Below, piece after piece: positions 5,007 through 18,199 of a DNA stretch of 64,000 nt. The translations under genes and the position numbers were made by a program. The stretch covers positions 1 to 64,000 of the IMG/VR virus record IMGVR_UViG_3300038412_000061; one strand, given 5' to 3'. Under the pieces are notes generated by a model, which was not told where the DNA came from, did not search any database, and saw nothing but the letters and a program-made list of their open reading frames with translations. Origin of the DNA: a virus. The stretch's first letter is position 1, and every line of letters begins with the position of its first letter.

Positions 5007-5375
5007 TCAACTGGGATAGTAGCGACAGGGGATTCCGGCGAGCGCGAGGCGTGCTTCCATGTCCTTTGTCCCCTTGCCGCCTGAAAAGACTAAGGCGAAA
5101 TCAGCCCCAAGATCGCACATTAACTGGTTCCTTTGTGGTCCTGCCTGAGGGTTGTACGATCCGCCGATTTTCCAATTCGCTGGGTGAGCCTCGGTACGAA
5201 ACCCTAAGTAAGCAGCAGCTTGAGAACATATCGAGTCCGCCCCAGATGCAGCACCGTGGACCAGTACATCGCCTTCTTGCAAGTTGTCGCGCACTGCTCG
5301 GTAGATCAGGATGAAATCGTAGTTGTCGCGACCCCCAGTAACCAGAACTCTTCTACTCATCTTTAGCTCGATCAT
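5007..5375 (-). CDS. DUF2493 / YspA-like SLOG family protein
   Basis: RVLVTGGRD, LVHGAASGAD, AGPQRNQLM and GGKGT motifs. Confidence 0.85.
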   Translation of the reverse strand: MIELKMSRRVLVTGGRDNYDFILIYRAVRDNLQEGDVLVHGAASGADSICSQAAAYLGFRTEAHPANWKIGGSYNPQAGPQRNQLMCDLGADFALVFSGGKGTKDMEARLALAGIPCRYYPS

Positions 5376-10037: not shown

Positions 10038-11222
10038 TCAGTGAGTCCCCTTGTAATTAAGGATCTGGTGAAGGACGTGGTCTATTCGAGTTAGCTCTTT
10101 CTGTCGGTCCATCACCTCTTCTATGGGCTTGTAGGCAGATGGTGACTCATCCAGGAGCTCCTCAGCGTTTCCGCTGTTCCAGGCCTTGCCCTCCATCTGC
10201 GCGTTAAGCATTTCAACGGTAAGCTCTTTTTTAGCACGTCCGCGCGAGAGCAAGCGGCCAGCGCCGTGTGAAGAAGAATTTAGAGAGGCCTCATTTCCAA
10301 GGCCGGTAGTGATGTAAGTCGCTGCACCCATGGAACCGGGTATGACTCCACGATCACCCTTGTCCGCCTTGATGGCACCCTTACGCGTTACCCATAAACG
10401 CTTGCCCCAATGGTTCTCCTGCTCAGTGAAATTATGGTGGCAGTTGATTTGTGCTTCAGAGATGACATCAGCCATTGGAAGGAAGTTGCGCACTGCTTCA
10501 TATGTCCCGCGCATCATTACTTCACGGTTCTGAAGAGCCCATGACTGAGCCCAGCGAAGGTCGTAAATGTAGTTGTCGAACAGCCTGTTCCCCTCCAAGA
10601 AGTAGGCCAAATCGGGGTCAGGCAAGGTTTCGCCACTCTGGTGCATCAACTCCTTAGCTATCTTGATGTGCTTGGTAGCCAGTTGGTTGCCAATACCGCG
10701 CGAACCAGAGTGCAGTACGATCCATACACGGTCCAACTCGTCAAGACACACTTCTACAAAGTGGTTTCCAGCTCCCAATGTTCCCATCTGCTCGGTGATA
10801 GTGTTCACCTGCTTATCGCTCAAACTTGACGGCCCCATGTAGGCAGGAACTTTTCGGGTGTGGCGCATACGATCCCAGTACGAGGCGAACTCGTGACCCT
10901 GACCAACACCAGAAGGAACCGCCTTTCTGATGAGGCTGTGGAGCGCGCTCAAATCATCAGGAAGATCGTTAGATGTGAGGTTAAGACGCATGGCTATCAT
11001 TCCGCATCCGATGTCAACGCCAACGGCGTACGGGATGATGGCACCCTCTGTTGCTATGACGGAGCCGACCGGGACCCCGTATCCTTGGTGTCCATCAGCC
11101 ATAACAGCAACTGGCTTCTGAACGAAAGGAAGCTTGGCAACGTTGGAGGCTTGCTGTACAGCTCCAGCCTCTAGGTTTGGGTCCCAGCTTAGTACGTCTG
11201 GTGTCAAAAGTTCCGGGATCAT
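10038..11222 (-). CDS. rtcB: RtcB RNA ligase
   Basis: DGHQGYG, GVDIGCGM, GTLGAGNHFVE, LHSGSRG, NCHHN, RKGA, PGSMG, SHGAGR, DESPSAYK motifs. Confidence 0.97.
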   Translation of the reverse strand: MIPELLTPDVLSWDPNLEAGAVQQASNVAKLPFVQKPVAVMADGHQGYGVPVGSVIATEGAIIPYAVGVDIGCGMIAMRLNLTSNDLPDDLSALHSLIRKAVPSGVGQGHEFASYWDRMRHTRKVPAYMGPSSLSDKQVNTITEQMGTLGAGNHFVEVCLDELDRVWIVLHSGSRGIGNQLATKHIKIAKELMHQSGETLPDPDLAYFLEGNRLFDNYIYDLRWAQSWALQNREVMMRGTYEAVRNFLPMADVISEAQINCHHNFTEQENHWGKRLWVTRKGAIKADKGDRGVIPGSMGAATYITTGLGNEASLNSSSHGAGRLLSRGRAKKELTVEMLNAQMEGKAWNSGNAEELLDESPSAYKPIEEVMDRQKELTRIDHVLHQILNYKGTH

Positions 11223-11681: not shown

Positions 11682-12623
11682 TCAAAACTCAACTCCCTTT
11701 GTTTTTAGGTAGGCGACTGCCTGAAGAAACATTTCTTCAGGTGAGCCGTCATTCATGATCTCGAAGTCCTCAAGCCCAATTGACGCAGTCTCAGAGATGT
11801 GTCCATTCACCGGCCCTTTCCCCTCTCGTGTCACGCGGATCACACTACCTCCGCGCTCCTTGATAGCTGCAACCTCATTCTCAAAGCGTACATCGGAGAC
11901 TATCAGTTTAGCAGAGTTCGCCCGATTAAGCAACCCATCCACCCAAACATTCTCACCTAGGTGTTGGCGTCCACCTTCAGTACCTAGGCGCTGAAGAAGT
12001 TGGCGAATCTCAGGAACGTCCAACTTTGCCCTTTCCCAGCCGAACGCGTCAACGTAGTCGCTAATACGCACAACGCCGTTGTGTCCAAACCCATCGCCTA
12101 CAACAGCCCAATTGGGGTCGGGGAGGATAGGATTCATTGCGTAAAGCATACCACGCATACTGTCAGCGAAACCACCACGAGCAAAGCCAAGACGATTGAC
12201 GAACTGAGCCGCCAGGGTATCCTTGCCAGCTTGCGCAAACCCTGTAAGGCCGATTAGCAACTCCCTCTCCAGGTATGAGTTATCAGCGTCAACACGGTAC
12301 ATGTCCAACTTTAAGCGACCTGCGAAGGCGCGCTCTAAAGATGCACCCTTAGACCTCTCCCATCCTGGGATGAAAGCTATCGCTGAGCACTCAGTCAGCG
12401 CTTTGTAGTCTCGGACCATGGCAGCGTGATAGTCGTCAGCAGTGAACTCGCGACTAGCCCACTCAGGGTCGTTGGGGTCATGCCCTGCCTGCCGGTCAAG
12501 GTCAGCGGGGGAGATGGGGTCCCAGCCCTGCTCAGCCAAGAACCGAGCATTGCGGTCGAAAGACGGAAAGTTGAACTGGTCGATTCCAGTCATCGGGCCT
12601 GCTACATAGATCCTGCCTCCCAT
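11682..12623 (-). CDS. Fusion of DUF4406 (deoxyribosyltransferase-like) and deoxynucleoside monophosphate kinase
   Basis: N-term IYVAGPMTG..FNFPSF..PGWERSKGASLE; C-term IGLTGFAQAGKDT, RQLLQRLGTE, SDVRFENE, HISE. Confidence 0.9.
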   Translation of the reverse strand: MGGRIYVAGPMTGIDQFNFPSFDRNARFLAEQGWDPISPADLDRQAGHDPNDPEWASREFTADDYHAAMVRDYKALTECSAIAFIPGWERSKGASLERAFAGRLKLDMYRVDADNSYLERELLIGLTGFAQAGKDTLAAQFVNRLGFARGGFADSMRGMLYAMNPILPDPNWAVVGDGFGHNGVVRISDYVDAFGWERAKLDVPEIRQLLQRLGTEGGRQHLGENVWVDGLLNRANSAKLIVSDVRFENEVAAIKERGGSVIRVTREGKGPVNGHISETASIGLEDFEIMNDGSPEEMFLQAVAYLKTKGVEF

Positions 12624-13159
12624 TACAGGTACCCCCCAACAGTCAGGAACTCCTGCTCGCTGTGTTCTGCGGGACGAGGGGCCTTCACCTTGGGAGCCTT
12701 GATACCGTAGTGGTTGAGCGTGGAGAGATTGGCCTCAGCTACGGCCTTCCAATAAGCAATTTCTTGATTACGCCTCTTTGCTTGTTCGATGTGAAGCGTG
12801 ATTTGCTTTCGCTGCTCAGACACCCGAGAGCGCAGGTTCTTCAACTCGTCTCCATGATTATGTCCGAAAGCTGTGTGCACAGCATTCAACAGAAGCATGT
12901 TGTGACGGTCACCTTCCTCGTACCCCTCCAACGCTTCCTTGAGGGATACGATCTCCTCCTCAGCAGACTCAAGGCAATCAACAACCTTGTTGTGCTCCTT
13001 AGCTATGGCATCCCACTCCTCTGTAGTGAACACAATAGCGAACGACTTTCGAGTCTGGGGATCACAAACGAGAACGTTTGGTGCACCATGGTCTTCTAGG
13101 GCGCGCTTTATCCCATAGGCAGTGTTGATGTCTCTGGCTCGCTGGCCTATATCTGTCAT
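12623..13159 (-). CDS. Hypothetical coiled-coil protein
   Basis: GGAGG RBS before MTDIGQ. Confidence 0.75.
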   Translation of the reverse strand: MTDIGQRARDINTAYGIKRALEDHGAPNVLVCDPQTRKSFAIVFTTEEWDAIAKEHNKVVDCLESAEEEIVSLKEALEGYEEGDRHNMLLLNAVHTAFGHNHGDELKNLRSRVSEQRKQITLHIEQAKRRNQEIAYWKAVAEANLSTLNHYGIKAPKVKAPRPAEHSEQEFLTVGGYL

Positions 13160-13186
13160 TTGTTTTCCTCCGAGTAGACTACTCAA

Positions 13187-13215
13187 AGGTTACCACAGAC
13201 TTTACTGAATTGCAA
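13187..13215 (-). promoter_or_regulatory. SigA-type promoter for the accessory operon
   Basis: TTGCAA-17-TAACCT with TGn. Confidence 0.65.
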
Positions 13216-13242
13216 CAGAAATTTGCATAAATTGAAAATTAG

Positions 13243-13313
13243 TCCGGGCAGCACGAATCGGACATGCGGAGTCGAAGATATAAGCTTCGATTGGATAACC
13301 AATCCATACCCGG
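13243..13313 (-). tRNA. Non-canonical tRNA, anticodon TAT (Ile)
   Basis: CCGGGTA/TGCCCGG acceptor, 6-bp anticodon stem, loop CTTATAT, 5-nt D-loop, T-loop TCCGATT. Confidence 0.6.
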
Positions 13314-13314
13314 T

Positions 13315-13389
13315 TGGTCGAGGTACCCGGAGTCGAACCGAGAGCGCAAGGCTTAGAACACCTTTGGCAGTCCATCCGCCACTACCCCG
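13315..13389 (-). tRNA. Atypical tRNA-Arg(TCT), CCA encoded
   Basis: AAGGT-GTTCTAA-GCCTT anticodon arm, TTCGACT T-loop, G at positions 8 and 32. Confidence 0.7.
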
Positions 13390-13391
13390 TT

Positions 13392-13560
13392 GTAGGTCAC
13401 TTTACGGGTGACCAATCCCCCGAAGCAAGTGGTAACCAACCCTAGTCTCTTCGGCACAACTAACGTCAACCGCCATGAATATCCACTTTGGTTAGAGTGG
13501 CCCATCTGGTGTCTCCCCAGCGTTCTGTCCTCACACGGCTCAGGCGCGTTAATTGCGTTC
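13392..13560 (-). ncRNA. Candidate multi-domain pseudoknotted ncRNA (~170 nt)
   Basis: 11-bp closing helix with two G.U pairs specific to this strand, four further helices, 7-nt loop-loop complementarity; own promoter. Confidence 0.65.
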
Positions 13561-13566
13561 GAATAA

Positions 13567-13595
13567 AGTGTAGCACATGTTATAATTTGTGTCAA
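13567..13595 (-). promoter_or_regulatory. SigA-type promoter
   Basis: TTGACA-17-TACACT with TGn. Confidence 0.85.
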
Positions 13596-13599
13596 GTGC

Positions 13600-13651
13600 A
13601 AAAACAAAAAGTACCCCGGCAATGTGTTTTGACAGGGATTGCTCCGGAGTT
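13600..13651 (-). terminator. Terminator of the upstream tRNA transcript
   Basis: ACTCCGG(A)GCAAT...ATTGCCGGGGT followed by ACTTTTTGTTTTT. Confidence 0.65.
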
Positions 13652-13656
13652 TTAAG

Positions 13657-13730
13657 CTCTAGGAGATGGGGTCGAACCACCAAGTCTCTCGGTTCAGAGC
13701 CGAGTATTTTTCCGGTTAAACTATCCTAGA
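13657..13730 (-). tRNA. tRNA-Gln(CTG)
   Basis: Cloverleaf; loop CTCTGAA. Confidence 0.88.
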
Positions 13731-13748
13731 ATGTAAAAATGCAAAGCG

Positions 13749-13834
13749 CGGATAGAGTGAGATTTGAACTCACGCGGCTATGACACCCTAACGGTTTAGC
13801 AAACCGTCCCCTTAAACCACTTGGGTACCTATCC
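13749..13834 (-). tRNA. tRNA-Ser(GCT)
   Basis: Long variable arm; loop TTGCTAA. Confidence 0.92.
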
Positions 13835-13838
13835 ATTG

Positions 13839-13909
13839 CTCTGGGAACTGGACTCGAACCAATACCTTACGGGTTCAAAGCCCGCCGTCCTGCCTTAGAC
13901 TATCCCAGA
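13839..13909 (-). tRNA. tRNA-Gln(TTG)
   Basis: Cloverleaf; loop CTTTGAA. Confidence 0.92.
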
Positions 13910-14046
13910 TCGATCACTGCGTAATTCTTGATTCTTCTTCCGTGCCCTATTTCGCGTTTTAAACTTCTGTCGCGGGGACGACACCATTCGCAAGAATGGC
14001 CCTCAGGGCAAACTTTCCAAGCTTTATTTCTAACGGTCCTGCTCAA
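13900..14046 (-). CDS. 48-aa basic peptide (MSRTVRNKAWKVCPEGHSCEWCRPRDR...)
   Basis: GGAGG RBS, TTG start; stop overlaps the 5' end of tRNA-Gln(TTG). Confidence 0.5.
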   Translation of the reverse strand: MSRTVRNKAWKVCPEGHSCEWCRPRDRSLKREIGHGRRIKNYAVIDLG

Positions 14047-14188
14047 AACTCTTCCTCCACTCAACTTCTTCTGAGCGCCGTCGGATCTTATGACTAGGAG
14101 ATTCCAAGCCGTGATCCATGCAGTAACAAATTCCCCTACCGGGGATTTTGCATAAAGCGGTTTTCATCCTGCCCATCATTTTAGCCAT
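14030..14188 (-). CDS. 52-aa basic peptide (MAKMMGRMKTALCKIPGRGICYC...KIRRRSEEVEW)
   Basis: ATG shares its A with the CCA of tRNA-Leu(CAA); fills the spacer. Confidence 0.5.
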   Translation of the reverse strand: MAKMMGRMKTALCKIPGRGICYCMDHGLESPSHKIRRRSEEVEWRKSFEQDR

Positions 14189-14263
14189 GGTCCTGATCTA
14201 GGGAGTCGAACCCTAACTGTGACGCTTTTGAAACGCCTATCTCTGCCATTGGATTACATCAGG
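14188..14263 (-). tRNA. tRNA-Leu(CAA) with short variable arm, CCA encoded
   Basis: Loop TTCAAAA; ~5-nt variable region. Confidence 0.8.
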
Positions 14264-14325
14264 ATAACTCCCATCTACCCCTGCATCTCACTTAAGAAAT
14301 TTCGCATCGGGGGTAGTAGGGATAG

Positions 14326-14396
14326 AGGCGAGAACAGGATTTGAACCCGTGTAAGAGGTGTTGCAAGCCTCCACCTAACCGCTCGGACATCCCGCC
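14326..14396 (-). tRNA. tRNA-Cys(GCA)
   Basis: TTGCAAC loop, U73. Confidence 0.85.
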
Positions 14397-14411
14397 ATTG
14401 TTACTGCTTCG

Positions 14412-14493
14412 TACTCATGGGGAGACTTGAACTCCCACCCCTTTCGGGACTAGTTTCTAAAACTAGCGCGGTTGCCGATTACGCCACACGAGC
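14412..14493 (-). tRNA. tRNA-Leu(TAG)
   Basis: Long variable arm; loop TTTAGAA. Confidence 0.92.
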
Positions 14494-14506
14494 ATGTATT
14501 ACTTAG

Positions 14507-14588
14507 TTCGGAAGAGGAGACTCGAACTCCTACGCTTTTAAGCAAGGGGGTTTAAGCCCCTCGTGGCTACCGATTACACCACTTCCGA
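14507..14588 (-). tRNA. tRNA-Leu(TAA)
   Basis: Long variable arm; loop CTTAAAC. Confidence 0.92.
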
Positions 14589-14675
14589 ATAGAACAGTCC
14601 ACTCTCGGATACTGTCATCTGTCACGACCTCCGCTGTCGTTGCGTTCGGTTCATAAGCATAGCCGAATTGCTTCG

Positions 14676-14749
14676 TGGAGAGTAAGGGACTCGAACCCTT
14701 GGTATCTTCGGTGCAAGCGAAGCGCAGTTGCCGCTGTAGCCAACTCCCC
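14676..14749 (-). tRNA. tRNA-Ala(TGC)
   Basis: G3.U70; loop CTTGCAC. Confidence 0.9.
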
Positions 14750-14851
14750 ATATAAGGTACTTTTAAGTCATGCCCAGGACTGGGGCTAGCGAGTAGTCAG
14801 AGACTACCGTCAACCTCCACCAGTATGCTTTTTACTTCATCCCAAGAAGAG

Positions 14852-14924
14852 TGGAAACGGTGGGATTTGAACCCACGACCTCTAGTATGCCATACTAGCG
14901 CACTACCAACTGTGCTACATCCCC
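14852..14924 (-). tRNA. tRNA-Ala(GGC)
   Basis: G3.U70; loop ATGGCAT. Confidence 0.93.
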
Positions 14925-15000
14925 ATGTTCTCGTCTCTCCGAGATGTCACCACAGTTCGCTGCGGTTGCAAAGTAGAAGCCTCTAGAAGCCGCTACTTCG

Positions 15001-15072
15001 TGGTTCCCGAACGGTTCGAACGTTCTCCGCAAGGTTTTCAAGCTCGCGTGCCTCCAGGTACACCAGAGAACC
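15001..15072 (-). tRNA. tRNA-Phe(GAA)
   Basis: Loop TTGAAAA. Confidence 0.85.
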
Positions 15073-15154
15073 AAGTGAAGCAGCGGGTGGTTATCCCAAT
15101 TGGCAACTCAGTTACGCAGGCAACGACTCTGCCACCGTGCCCTAAACTACTTCG

Positions 15155-15228
15155 TACAGACTGAGGGAGTCGAACCCCCGAACCTTCTCCTTGTAAAAGA
15201 GACACTCTGGCCACTGAGTTAAGTCTGC
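15155..15228 (-). tRNA. tRNA-Val(TAC)
   Basis: Loop TTTACAA. Confidence 0.9.
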
Positions 15229-15276
15229 ATGTGTCGGTCTTTCCCGACTGTATAGAGAGGCGCTAGCCACCCATCG

Positions 15277-15349
15277 TCTCCCCACACCGACTCGAACGGT
15301 GATCGCTGGTTTCGTAGACCAGAATTTTAATCCATTAAACTACAAGGAG
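15277..15349 (-). tRNA. tRNA-Arg(ACG)
   Basis: Loop CTACGAA. Confidence 0.9.
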
Positions 15350-15414
15350 AAGCGGGCCTTTTAGTGACATGCCCAGGTACACCATTAAATGGGTACTGCG
15401 GGGAAGATCCCCAG

Positions 15415-15488
15415 TTGTGCAAGAGGGATTCGAACCCACGACCGACCGCGTATCAGACGGTTGCTCTACCAGACCGAGCTACTGCACA
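15415..15488 (-). tRNA. tRNA-Ile(GAT)
   Basis: Loop CTGATAC. Confidence 0.9.
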
Positions 15489-15502
15489 TCGTTTACTGCT
15501 AG

Positions 15503-15578
15503 TAGCGGCGGCGGGATTTGAACCCGCGATTCCTTGGTTATGAGCCAAGTGCCGTAGACCAGACTGGGCCACACCGCA
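15503..15578 (-). tRNA. tRNA-Met(CAT), initiator-like
   Basis: Loop CTCATAA; 1:72 mismatch. Confidence 0.88.
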
Positions 15579-15640
15579 TCGAACTACCGGCTTCTCCCCG
15601 GCAGGCTGTTCGGGCCTTAACGCGGGGGAGAAGCACTAGG

Positions 15641-15712
15641 GGTGAGCGAGGAGAATCGAACTCCCGCGACTTGGGTCACATCCAAGCGGTCTACCACTAA
15701 CCTACATCCACC
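15641..15712 (-). tRNA. tRNA-His(GTG)
   Basis: G-1:C73; loop ATGTGAC. Confidence 0.9.
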
Positions 15713-15803
15713 ATGTCTTCACTGGGCGGAACCTCACCCCCAGCGTTACCATCCCCGCTAACCCCCGGATGGCTTCCATACTGTTGGAACGAACTTCTTT
15801 CCA

Positions 15804-15832
15804 AGTGTAGCATAACTCCTGCCACTTGTCAA
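15804..15832 (-). promoter_or_regulatory. SigA-type promoter inside the tRNA array
   Basis: TTGACA-17-TACACT with TGn. Confidence 0.85.
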
Positions 15833-15843
15833 ATCTTTTTTCG

Positions 15844-15916
15844 CACGGGCGGAGAGAATCGAACTCCCAGTGGCAGGTTTTGGAGACCTGCTGACATTCC
15901 AATATGCCACACCCAT
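15844..15916 (-). tRNA. tRNA-Trp(CCA)
   Basis: Loop CTCCAAA, G73. Confidence 0.88.
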
Positions 15917-15984
15917 ATAGTCCCGTCTCTCCAGGATGCCACGTTTCTTGGGTCGATCAACTCCCAGGGAAAAACGTCCCCTCG

Positions 15985-16056
15985 TTGACCCCGTGGGAGT
16001 CGAACCCACATGAAACAGATTAAGAGTCTGCCGCATAACCGCTCTGCCAGAGATCA
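15985..16056 (-). tRNA. tRNA-Lys(CTT)
   Basis: Loop CTCTTAA. Confidence 0.9.
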
Positions 16057-16067
16057 ATGTTACTGCG

Positions 16068-16145
16068 TCGTAGATGAGGGAATCGAACCCCCTTGCCGAA
16101 GCCAGTGGTTTACAGCCACCTGCCGCCCATGCGAGCCTATCTACG
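16068..16145 (-). tRNA. tRNA-Tyr(GTA), C1:G72
   Basis: Loop CTGTAAA; variable arm GCTTCGGC. Confidence 0.85.
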
Positions 16146-16156
16146 TTGTTACTACG

Positions 16157-16229
16157 CTCCAGTTAATGGGTTCGAACCATTCTATCACGGTTAACAGCCG
16201 CGCACATTCGCCAAGATTGTTAAACTGGA
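16157..16229 (-). tRNA. tRNA-Asn(GTT)
   Basis: Loop CTGTTAA, G73. Confidence 0.88.
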
Positions 16230-16242
16230 ATGCTTTACTACG

Positions 16243-16314
16243 TTCTCCTAGGGAATTCTGCCATCCCGACCCTGGGCTTAAAAGGCCCCTGCTCTTCTTC
16301 TGAGCTACAGGAGA
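16243..16314 (-). tRNA. tRNA-Lys(TTT) with non-standard T-loop
   Basis: Loop CTTTTAA; T-loop GGCAGAA. Confidence 0.8.
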
Positions 16315-16325
16315 TCGATACTTCT

Positions 16326-16402
16326 TGGTCTAGTAGGAGGGATTTGAACCCCCAGCCTGATGGCCCCAAACCACCCGCTCTACCAAGTTGAGCCACTACT
16401 AG
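16326..16402 (-). tRNA. tRNA-Pro(TGG), CCA encoded
   Basis: Loop TTTGGGG. Confidence 0.92.
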
Positions 16403-16413
16403 ATGATACTGCG

Positions 16414-16516
16414 TACTTCTTACATGGGGGGCGCTCTGCCCACTTAAGCTACCCCAGGACTTATGCCTCCGAAGAGAATGCCCGTGGACGGGATTCGAAC
16501 CCGCACCTCCCCCTCG
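16414..16516 (-). ncRNA. Circularly permuted tRNA-like RNA (YrlA Y-RNA-type module)
   Basis: T-arm GCGGG-TTCGAAT-CCCGT precedes an acceptor-like helix capped by CTC-TTCG-GAG, then D-arm TAGCTTAAGTGGGCAGAGC; ends pair GGGGG/CCCCC. Confidence 0.8.
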
Positions 16517-16590
16517 CGCCAGTAGCGGGTTTCGATCCCAGCTGCCTTTCGATTGACAATCGAATGCTCTCCCGAGTGAGCTATACCGGC
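16517..16590 (-). tRNA. tRNA-Asp(GTC)
   Basis: Loop TTGTCAA, G73. Confidence 0.88.
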
Positions 16591-17087
16591 TTGTGTAATT
16601 CTAGGTAACCTTTTATTTCTTTGGAGTAAGTTTCAAACCACCCCAATCTCGTATTGCAATAAAGACAAAGTAGTCCTCTAACTTCCCCTGTCGCATGATC
16701 GTGATCAACGGCGAAGTGACTGTTCTTTCTTCCTGAACCTCTTTTGCATATAGAACATTTACCACCCTGCAACTCCAAAAGAGCATCATATCTTTCCGTA
16801 GTGATTCCTGAAGTGGCCTTCAGATATGAAGATCTAGTCTGTTTTTTAAGTCTTTCGTTGCTACAAGTATTACAATATTTCTGAGCGGTACCGGTAGCTT
16901 GAAATTCTTTACTGCATTCCGCGCACTTTATCACAGGAAGTTTTCTAGTAACGACGGTCCCCTTGCCGGAGCACACGTTAGAGCAAAACCTTCCAGTCCC
17001 ACTTTTGACTTGATAGGGATGACGGTAAAAAACTACCTCACAACCATCAAGCTCACACACAACATCGATGCCAGATCGTTTTCTCAT
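16581..17087 (-). CDS. Endonuclease VII-family HNH nuclease with N-terminal Cys-rich repeats (probable homing endonuclease)
   Basis: QGGKCSIC...AVDHDHATGEVRGLLCLYCNTRLG; low GC; inserted among tRNAs. Confidence 0.9.
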   Translation of the reverse strand: MRKRSGIDVVCELDGCEVVFYRHPYQVKSGTGRFCSNVCSGKGTVVTRKLPVIKCAECSKEFQATGTAQKYCNTCSNERLKKQTRSSYLKATSGITTERYDALLELQGGKCSICKRGSGRKNSHFAVDHDHATGEVRGLLCLYCNTRLGWFETYSKEIKGYLELHKPV

Positions 17088-17093
17088 ACTTCT

Positions 17094-17122
17094 ATGGTAT
17101 CACAAGAACATTTAGAAGTCAA
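17094..17122 (-). promoter_or_regulatory. SigA-type promoter, leaderless HNH transcript
   Basis: TTGACT-17-TACCAT with TGn, ATG 6 nt downstream. Confidence 0.7.
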
Positions 17123-17141
17123 GACTTTACTTCTTACTACG

Positions 17142-17225
17142 CGGAGCCCGGAGGTACTGCCCCCCTGGGATTGCTCCCCGATTCGCTTTCAAGGCGAGCC
17201 CCCGACTATCCGAGGTTCAGACTCC
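17142..17225 (-). tRNA. tRNA-Ser(TGA) with non-standard T-loop
   Basis: Loop CTTGAAA; long variable arm; T-loop GCAGTAC. Confidence 0.78.
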
Positions 17226-17291
17226 ATTGTTGGAGCGTCGGGCTGATTAGACCCGTTAAAAGCGACTTCTTATAATTCGCTTAACGCTTCG

Positions 17292-17362
17292 TACTGTTAC
17301 GGGGTCTCGATCCCCGTCTGCCGCCCTGAGAAAGCGGAGTGCTACCATCACACCCTAACAGC
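17292..17362 (-). tRNA. tRNA-Glu(CTC)
   Basis: Loop TTCTCAG. Confidence 0.87.
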
Positions 17363-17458
17363 AAGTAAAAGTGGAACGGCTGACTAGGCCTAAGGCTAGA
17401 ACGACCTCTCGGGCAAAATCGTCAATCTCGCCGTAGGAACATCTATCCAACCACTTCG

Positions 17459-17531
17459 CAGTCTGACGGAGACTCGAACTCCGGCTACGAGGGTGAAAAC
17501 CTCGCGTCCTAGGCCACTAGACGACCAGACC
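17459..17531 (-). tRNA. tRNA-Glu(TTC)
   Basis: Loop TTTTCAC. Confidence 0.93.
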
Positions 17532-17546
17532 ATGTTTTACTACTAG

Positions 17547-17618
17547 AGTCTCAGGCGGGGTACGATCCCGCGACCTCCTACTTGGCAAGCAGGCGTTCTT
17601 CCGCTGAACTACTAAGAC
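17547..17618 (-). tRNA. tRNA-Gly(GCC)
   Basis: Loop TTGCCAA, U73. Confidence 0.88.
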
Positions 17619-17630
17619 ATTGTTACTTCG

Positions 17631-17701
17631 ACCGTCATGCCGGATTCGAACCGGCGCCGCCTACTTGGAAGGAAGGAAGTCTACCACTAACCTAACAACG
17701 G
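17631..17701 (-). tRNA. tRNA-Gly(TCC)
   Basis: Loop CTTCCAA, U73. Confidence 0.88.
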
Positions 17702-17713
17702 ATTGTTACTGCG

Positions 17714-17785
17714 TGCCGAAATGAGGGAACGATCCTCATCCTCTTCGTTACCAACGAAGCGTGCTTCCTTTATCACTATTACGGC
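17714..17785 (-). tRNA. tRNA-Thr(GGT)
   Basis: Loop TTGGTAA. Confidence 0.85.
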
Positions 17786-17853
17786 ATGTGAAGTGTTCGG
17801 GTTAAGTCATTCCCGATGAAGATGCGCTGCCTTGGACCGCCCTCACCACCTCG

Positions 17854-17924
17854 TTCCCCCGGACGGATTCGAACCGCCGCATCTGAGTTACGAACTCAGA
17901 GTTCTCCCGCTAAACTACAAGGGA
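17854..17924 (-). tRNA. tRNA-Thr(CGT)
   Basis: Loop TTCGTAA. Confidence 0.88.
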
Positions 17925-17929
17925 ATGCG

Positions 17930-18002
17930 TGCCGCTAACAGGATTCGAACCCATGACCTGACGCTTACAAGGCGCCTGCTCTACCACCTGAGCTACAACG
18001 GC
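17930..18002 (-). tRNA. tRNA-Thr(TGT)
   Basis: Loop CTTGTAA. Confidence 0.93.
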
Positions 18003-18011
18003 ATGTTTACT

Positions 18012-18040
18012 ATTGTACTGCAAATTCTTTAGGATGTCAA
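18012..18040 (-). promoter_or_regulatory. SigA-type promoter of the tRNA array
   Basis: TTGACA-17-TACAAT. Confidence 0.85.
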
Positions 18041-18043
18041 GCA

Positions 18044-18111
18044 GAAAGAAAAAAAGAGCGCAACCCCAATAAACACTTTCCCTCCCGAAAGTACTTACCA
18101 GAGCTGCGCTC
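18044..18111 (-). terminator. Long hairpin terminator
   Basis: GAGCGCAGCTCTGGTAAGTACTTTC / GAAAGTGTTTATTGGGGTTGCGCTC followed by a T run. Confidence 0.8.
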
Positions 18112-18122
18112 CTCGAACCGCT

Positions 18123-18199
18123 TGGTGGCGGAGACTCGGAATCGAACCGAGGACATCTGGTTATGAGCCAGATCGGAGCACCAGCCCCAGCCTCCCGCT
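18123..18199 (-). tRNA. Atypical tRNA with CAT anticodon, CCA encoded
   Basis: Loop CTCATAA, TTCGATT T-loop; bulged and mismatched acceptor stem. Confidence 0.75.

Follow-up and report, generated by a model that had tools for sequence, protein, structure and literature searches.

A putative separately promoted, structured non-coding RNA at the end of a phage tRNA gene array

On the basis of sequence comparison, the phage DNA examined in this study is predicted to encode a structured non-coding RNA of approximately 170 nt, which would be expressed from a promoter of its own within a large array of tRNA genes and which appears to be both strand-specific and lineage-specific. The window, i.e. 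the entire 64,000-nt stretch that was analysed, represents the first 64 kb of a 95,949-bp IMG/VR virus record that is rated complete. A protein-guided search identified one further record carrying the RNA (IMGVR_UViG_3300050120_000115; 88,953 bp, rated complete), and comparison of the two copies revealed that the hairpins of the second part of the molecule, and those enclosed in the first, are maintained through compensatory base changes.

Employing ARAGORN, 31 tRNA genes were called on the minus strand of the window, from position 18198 to position 13242, of which 24 exceed the gathering score of the Rfam tRNA model; at the gathering threshold, a search of the whole window against Rfam returned tRNAs only. 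The final genes of this array are tRNA-Arg(UCU) and tRNA-Ile(UAU), and it is directly upstream of these two genes that the structured RNA is located. Three genes are found 3' of the array on the same strand, among them that of an RtcB RNA ligase 2 kb downstream of the structured RNA (Table 1), with the terminase, portal and capsid genes following on the plus strand. The terminase exhibits at most approximately 32% identity to that of any deposited phage. The nearest relatives identified by protein search (P0003, P0004, P0005 and P0007; 69-77% identity) are located on contigs that lay outside the RNA search. A mine-drainage metagenome run containing this phage DNA may represent its source; in the one metatranscriptome containing the phage, likewise from mine drainage, the matching contigs cover the downstream ORF only (12721-12920 and 12995-13188).

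The array itself displays a number of additional features. An ORF specifying an HNH/endonuclease VII-like protein of 168 aa (16581-17087, minus strand) is positioned within it, in a manner that resembles the placement of the SegB homing endonuclease in the T4 tRNA cluster. Judging from the 3' flanks of the tRNA genes (13242-18198, minus strand), CCA is encoded by only about five of the 31; most array tRNAs terminate in N-C and are trailed by a recurrent sequence, for instance GAAGUA or G/U-AGUAACA (examples being Leu-tag, Ala-tgc, Phe, Val, both Glu, Gly-tcc, Thr-ggt, Asn and Tyr), which looks like a common 3'-processing signal. The sequence C-CGAAG is also present directly 3' of P1 in the structured RNA.

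The promoter proposed in a preliminary description of this DNA, TTGACA-17-TACACT, was indeed located upstream of the RNA, where TTGACA (13595-13590) and TACACT (13572-13567) are separated by 17 nt and accompanied by an extended -10 TG (13575-13574). The homolog has identical hexamers at the same 17-nt distance, the spacer sequence itself having diverged. Three near-consensus promoters occur in the tRNA array, the other two being positioned at 18040-18012 and 15832-15804; since promoter-like sites are not enriched (five identified by the promoter scan versus 3.6 expected), the promoter motif alone proves little. The terminator claimed to precede the promoter is present as a hairpin with a U run, yet it is weak and was not called by the terminator scan; the fold of 13596-13660 amounts to -13.7 kcal/mol (z -0.74), and the hairpin is poorly conserved at the homolog locus (L002). 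The promoter at 15832-15804 (within 15712-15832, minus strand) possesses hexamers and spacing identical to those of the promoter under study, TTGACA-17-TACACT, and would drive a G-rich leader of approximately 85 nt before tRNA-His; a stretch like this promoter recurs in the homolog genome.

Table 1. Features of the structured RNA locus (positions are those of the window) and state of each helix in the homolog
Feature	Position	Strand	Basis or context	Homolog
Weak terminator-like hairpin and U run (TTTTTGTTTTT)	13600-13653	-	3' of tRNA-Gln(CTG)	
Sigma-70-type promoter TTGACA-17-TACACT with extended -10 TG	13595-13567	-	Promoter scan, 10/12 matches	
Structured non-coding RNA, ~171 nt	13390-13560	-	CM R1, 204.6 bits; both ends putative	
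Domain 1: P1, P1b and P2 enclosing hairpins P3 and P4	13455-13557	-		
P1	13557-13547/13465-13455	-		6/11 pairs kept; 1 double change, 1 G-U to A-U
P1b	13544-13543/13471-13470	-		Invariant
P2	13539-13534/13477-13472	-		Invariant
P3 hairpin CTGG/CCAG	13520-13517/13509-13506	-		CTAG/CTAG; 1 double substitution, pairing kept; loop 11 nt vs 7 nt in window
P4 hairpin CCACT/AGTGG, conserved loop CUAACCA(A)	13500-13496/13487-13483	-		TCTTC/GAAGA; double substitutions in 4/5 pairs, all pairing
P5 CCGAAG/CTTCGG	13454-13449/13425-13420	-		3 double substitutions, pairing kept
P5a (GGT/ACC, loop UGGUU), inner hairpin of P5	Within 13420-13454	-		1 double and 1 single substitution, pairing kept; loop core UGGU invariant
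P6 hairpin GGTCAC/GTGACC, loop CCGUAAA	13413-13408/13400-13395	-		1 double substitution, pairing kept; loop pattern CCGNAAA conserved
tRNA-Arg(UCU), encoded CCA	13315-13389	-	ARAGORN	
Compact tRNA-like gene, anticodon UAU (Ile)	13242-13313	-	ARAGORN	
Unknown protein	12623-13159	-	3' of tRNA array	
Nucleoside deoxyribosyltransferase/dNMP kinase fusion	11682-12623	-	3' of tRNA array	
RtcB RNA ligase	10038-11222	-	2 kb downstream of structured RNA	

Transcription from this promoter would start at G13560 or A13559, which places the 5' end of the RNA 2-3 nt from P1. The RNA would end at A13390, 5 nt beyond P6, C13389 being the first base of tRNA-Arg(UCU), and in both phages carrying it the RNA adjoins the first base of this tRNA. 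All six helices claimed in the preliminary description were found at the places given for them, and together they make up most of the MFE fold. The junctions of domain 1, UGAGGNCAGA and AUAUUC, are conserved, and so are three further single-stranded blocks, namely CUAACCA, UGGU and CCGNAAA. The folding energy of the RNA as a whole is similar to that of shuffled sequence (z = -0.52), the P6 hairpin alone reaching z -3.25. Three other readings of the region were rejected: inspection by eye for a K-turn at the P2 junction found an opposing strand without GA; a cloverleaf for domain 1 cannot be drawn with a T arm, although the C-CGAAG trailer after P1 is tRNA-like; and an 89-aa ORF spanning the RNA (13353-13622) is absent from the homolog.

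The homologous RNA is positioned at L002 4773-4945, between tRNA-Gln(CUG) and tRNA-Arg(UCU), and shares with the window copy the promoter hexamers and their spacing, the length of the RNA and the two downstream tRNAs; it was scored at 187.1 bits by CM R1. Both copies are 173 nt in length and are identical at 112 of 169 aligned positions, in an alignment in which one gap was moved so that the P4 hairpin of the homolog itself pairs. As the helices had been proposed from the window alone, pairing in the homolog represents an independent test. All 32 base pairs of P1b to P6 are retained through ten double substitutions and one single substitution, whereas randomisations in which the changed columns received random new bases yielded a mean of 25.8 pairs and did not reach 32 in any of 20,000 trials. 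The covariation sought for the helices was thereby observed in P3 to P6, in one homolog, and the hairpins are real and beyond chance within this comparison of two sequences, in which P2 never varies. About half of P1, the long-range closing helix, has been lost in the homolog. Here, too, the folding energy is close to that of shuffled sequence (z -0.29), and the shared architecture lies 11 kcal/mol above the MFE of the homolog. Since G-U pairs, such as the conserved one in P2, would become C-A on the other strand, the minus strand is indicated to be the functional one. The homolog locus also harbours an insertion of approximately 300 bp between tRNA-Gln(CUG) and the RNA promoter, which holds an ORF for a 60-aa hydrophobic protein on the opposite strand (L002 4470-4652, minus strand).

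The preliminary description had furthermore postulated a 7-bp loop-loop pseudoknot between TAACCAA (13494-13488) and TTGGTTA (13439-13433; both minus strand), and this element of the model was not supported by the comparison. As the outer U and A of UUGGUUA constitute the closing pair of P5a, with which the outermost loop-loop pair would compete, the loop itself accommodates five pairs only. The corresponding loops of the homolog are CUAACCA and UGGUA, leaving an invariant 4-bp ACCA/UGGU core with four flanking changes, all of which are uncompensated, such that the covariation sought for this pair was not found in the homolog. The loop-loop duplex energies are -4.4 and -3.5 kcal/mol, and we estimate that about one 7-nt complement would be expected by chance somewhere within 173 nt. 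The heptamer TTGGTTA is, as previously claimed, also present in the D arm of the TAT tRNA; UGGU is an ordinary D-loop sequence, which occurs in 11 of the 31 tRNAs of the array. Between the L4 loop and the D arm of the UAU tRNA, 7 bp can form in the window and five contiguous pairs in the homolog.

The two downstream tRNAs, which are separated from each other by one base, had both been described as abnormal. This designation holds for the UAU tRNA, for which no Rfam tRNA match was obtained in either phage and all four stems of which change in a compensatory manner between the two phages, but not for tRNA-Arg(UCU), which falls below the Rfam tRNA threshold in the window and is canonical (55.3 bits) in the homolog. 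The D loop of the UAU tRNA measures 5 nt, and its T loop is odd (UCCGAUU in the window, AUCAUUC in the homolog). With regard to the question of whether homologs always precede similar tRNAs, both copies of the RNA adjoin Arg(UCU)/Ile(UAU), and in either phage the RNA would share its transcript with these two tRNAs. The reverse does not apply: the related phage record G002 contains Gln(CUG)-Arg(UCU), then 77 nt, then Ile(UAU) without a structured-RNA leader, and a soil-metagenome contig carries a near-identical UAU tRNA (three differences) with unrelated flanks. Together with the canonical tRNA-Arg of the homolog, these tRNAs without the RNA indicate that the unit proposed with two odd tRNAs is not an obligate one. 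An additional element of approximately 118 nt, absent from the window, is located 3' of the UAU tRNA in the homolog (L002 ~5098-5215, plus strand); it begins like a D arm, contains a GGTTCAAATCC T-arm as well as a large insert, and has a paired 3' end that includes CCA, but was called by neither ARAGORN nor Rfam.

The distribution of the RNA is restricted. No homolog was detected by blastn against 50,697 phage records, and motif scans of IMG/VR, JGI metagenomes and GTDB genomes recovered the copy in the homolog record and chance matches only, the latter being rejected by CM R1 (35 motif-scan loci) or by eye. When applied to 80 loci surrounding homologs of the nearby kinase gene, to the entire sequences of three related records (G002-G004) and to 32 terminase relatives, including a complete one, CM R1 identified nothing further, nor did it detect a second copy in the genome of the phage itself. 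Altogether, the RNA is absent from 35 further related phage records. This absence from related records argues that the RNA is dispensable in this phage group and was gained recently by a single small lineage.

In agreement with the earlier statement that no family could be recognised, Rfam 15 returned nothing for either copy at E<=10, and across 13150-13750 and L002 4700-5260 the same threshold yielded tRNA matches and noise below 20 bits only. A tRNA or tmRNA is not a suitable assignment, as ARAGORN called nothing in 13390-13562 and the tRNA clan produced no match there at E<=10. The T-box resembles the present RNA in being a leader RNA with an exposed UGGU able to pair with the ACCA end of a tRNA, and the P5a region of the homolog, GGGUGGUAC, bears a resemblance to the T-box core (the window reads GGGUUGGUUAC, with two extra bases). 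However, UGGU resides in a 5-nt hairpin loop here, being a hairpin loop in both copies, as opposed to the 7-nt bulge of a T-box; the RNA lacks both a terminator/antiterminator switch and a Stem I specifier loop; and it precedes tRNAs rather than an aminoacyl-tRNA synthetase or amino-acid gene. RF00230 produced no match at E<=10 in either phage, the control genomes being matched. P6 is followed by UACAA and then by the tRNA, the terminator scan called no terminator downstream of the RNA, and neither a terminator/antiterminator nor a sequestrator alternative was found after it, leading us to reject a T-box switch.

A small structured RNA near RtcB and tRNA-like genes is also reminiscent of the YrlA/YrlB Y RNAs of the rsr-rtcB neighbourhood. 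Bacterial Y RNAs carry the 5' motif GNCGAA(N)G (PMC4201824), which the 5' UCGAAC of the present RNA resembles in part, the first G of the motif being missing in both copies. Unlike bacterial Y RNAs, the RNA does not contain a T-arm-like module and the phage does not encode Ro60, no Ro60/TROVE protein (PF05731) having been detected at E<=1 in the complete 95.9-kb record. The YrlA model (RF02553) did not match at 13390-13562, its best matches in the genome being at 15463-15529 and 16400-16535. The latter (minus strand), in the spacer between tRNA-Asp and tRNA-Pro, is a weak full-length match covering model positions 1-114, with 24.4 bits (E 2.9e-4), far under the 69-bit cut-off.

Regarding its context only, the RNA is comparable to rnaC (species 1, 139 nt) and rnaD (species 2, 119 nt), which are annotated in T4 as small stable RNAs: in T4 as here, a small RNA encoded on the same strand as the tRNAs neighbours tRNA-Arg at the distal end of the tRNA cluster, and rnaC and rnaD are accordingly produced together with the T4 tRNAs. 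In contrast to T4, where rnaC and rnaD come after tRNA-Arg, the present RNA is placed before it and has its own promoter; moreover, rnaC has a GGUUCGAAUCC T-arm-like hairpin, of which there is no equivalent here. Homology to rnaC/rnaD was rejected, the best score of CM R1 in the T4 tRNA region with filters off being 4.2 bits.

With modest confidence, we favour the interpretation that the element is an independent, stable small RNA. According to this model, the promoter inside the tRNA array would start a transcript whose first ~171 nt fold in two parts, the P1/P2-closed domain with P3 and P4 followed by the P5/P5a and P6 hairpins, and which would continue directly into tRNA-Arg(UCU) and then tRNA-Ile(UAU). 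As RNase P represents the universal route of tRNA 5' maturation, its cut at the 5' end of tRNA-Arg would be expected to detach the leader and thereby yield a small RNA of its own, both ends of which lie near helices, by the same production route as T4 rnaC/rnaD; we infer the transcription start, release by RNase P, stability and any action in trans. The conserved single-stranded blocks suggest that the RNA adopts a specific tertiary structure or binds a partner, and is not simply a stabilising stem. A cis-acting leader, which would protect the 5' end from decay or aid the folding or RNase P processing of the two tRNAs and would then be degraded, is possible though doubtful. Its 5' end is nearly flush with P1, it is always fused to tRNA-Arg, L4 can pair with the D arm of the UAU tRNA in both phages and the array promoter at 15832-15804 likewise has a leader, all of which would suit such a role; six helices with conserved junctions and loops would nevertheless be unneeded for simple protection, the first promoter of the array feeds its tRNA with almost no leader, and Arg(UCU)/Ile(UAU) in G002 as well as the UAU tRNA of the soil contig occur without this one. 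As to the function of an independent small RNA, our first guess, based on the ACCA/UGGU loops and the tRNA/RtcB setting, is that a tRNA-related role is the most likely. It is unlikely, however, that the RNA represents a new class of phage tRNA-binding RNA whose invariant UGGU and ACCA loops contact tRNAs at their 3' ACCA end and D loop, or mimic this contact intramolecularly, and which acts with the tRNA array and RtcB, for example in sensing, chaperoning or shielding tRNAs under attack by host tRNA nucleases.

A T-box-like sensor or binder, in which UGGU pairs with the ACCA end of a tRNA (discriminator A) or the ACCA loop binds D loops, so that the state of the tRNA pool would influence how two rare-codon tRNAs are produced or processed, is decidedly unlikely. 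The invariant loop cores, the discriminator A of both downstream tRNAs and the resemblance of the P5a region in the homolog to the T-box core are compatible with a sensor, as are the triplets AGA and AUA, which correspond to the codons of these tRNAs and occur in the conserved junctions CAGA and AUAUUC; such triplets or 4-mers would, however, arise by chance at an estimated few per cent to 20 per cent, the indels of the window fall within the supposed T-box core, P6 is not followed by a U run, and both the T-box model and the search for a switch alternative gave nothing, as described above. The suggestion of a ribozyme or riboswitch was likewise not upheld. New ribozymes have previously been found in phage settings, and a multi-helix junction with conserved unpaired nucleotides in such a setting might accommodate a new class of self-cleaving ribozyme or small-molecule riboswitch; we consider this very improbable given that no Rfam ribozyme or riboswitch matched either copy at E<=10, no terminator or sequestrator follows the RNA, an expression platform is lacking, and formation of its 3' end is already explained by RNase P. 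There is equally little to be expected of a decaying remnant of eroded tRNA genes or of an inserted spacer with fortuitous hairpins, a reading that covariation has largely refuted. The length, approximately that of two tRNAs plus spacers, the absence from relatives, the unremarkable folding energy and the eroded P1 would be in keeping with decay, but the ten compensatory double substitutions without a broken pair in P1b to P6, the conserved promoter, the identical length of both copies and the lack of any tRNA-model signal at E<=10 are not.

Large phage tRNA arrays are now viewed as counter-measures to host defences that cleave tRNAs, and, to our knowledge, conserved structured non-tRNA RNAs within such arrays have hardly been studied. 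The locus described here represents a compact element with a defined promoter, tractable hairpins backed by covariation and two conserved loops that may contact tRNA. Should the RNA prove to bind tRNA or a factor of the host, the module by which tRNAs are replaced and repaired would gain an RNA component, while if it is a leader only, it would still illustrate how phages build internal transcription units within their tRNA arrays.
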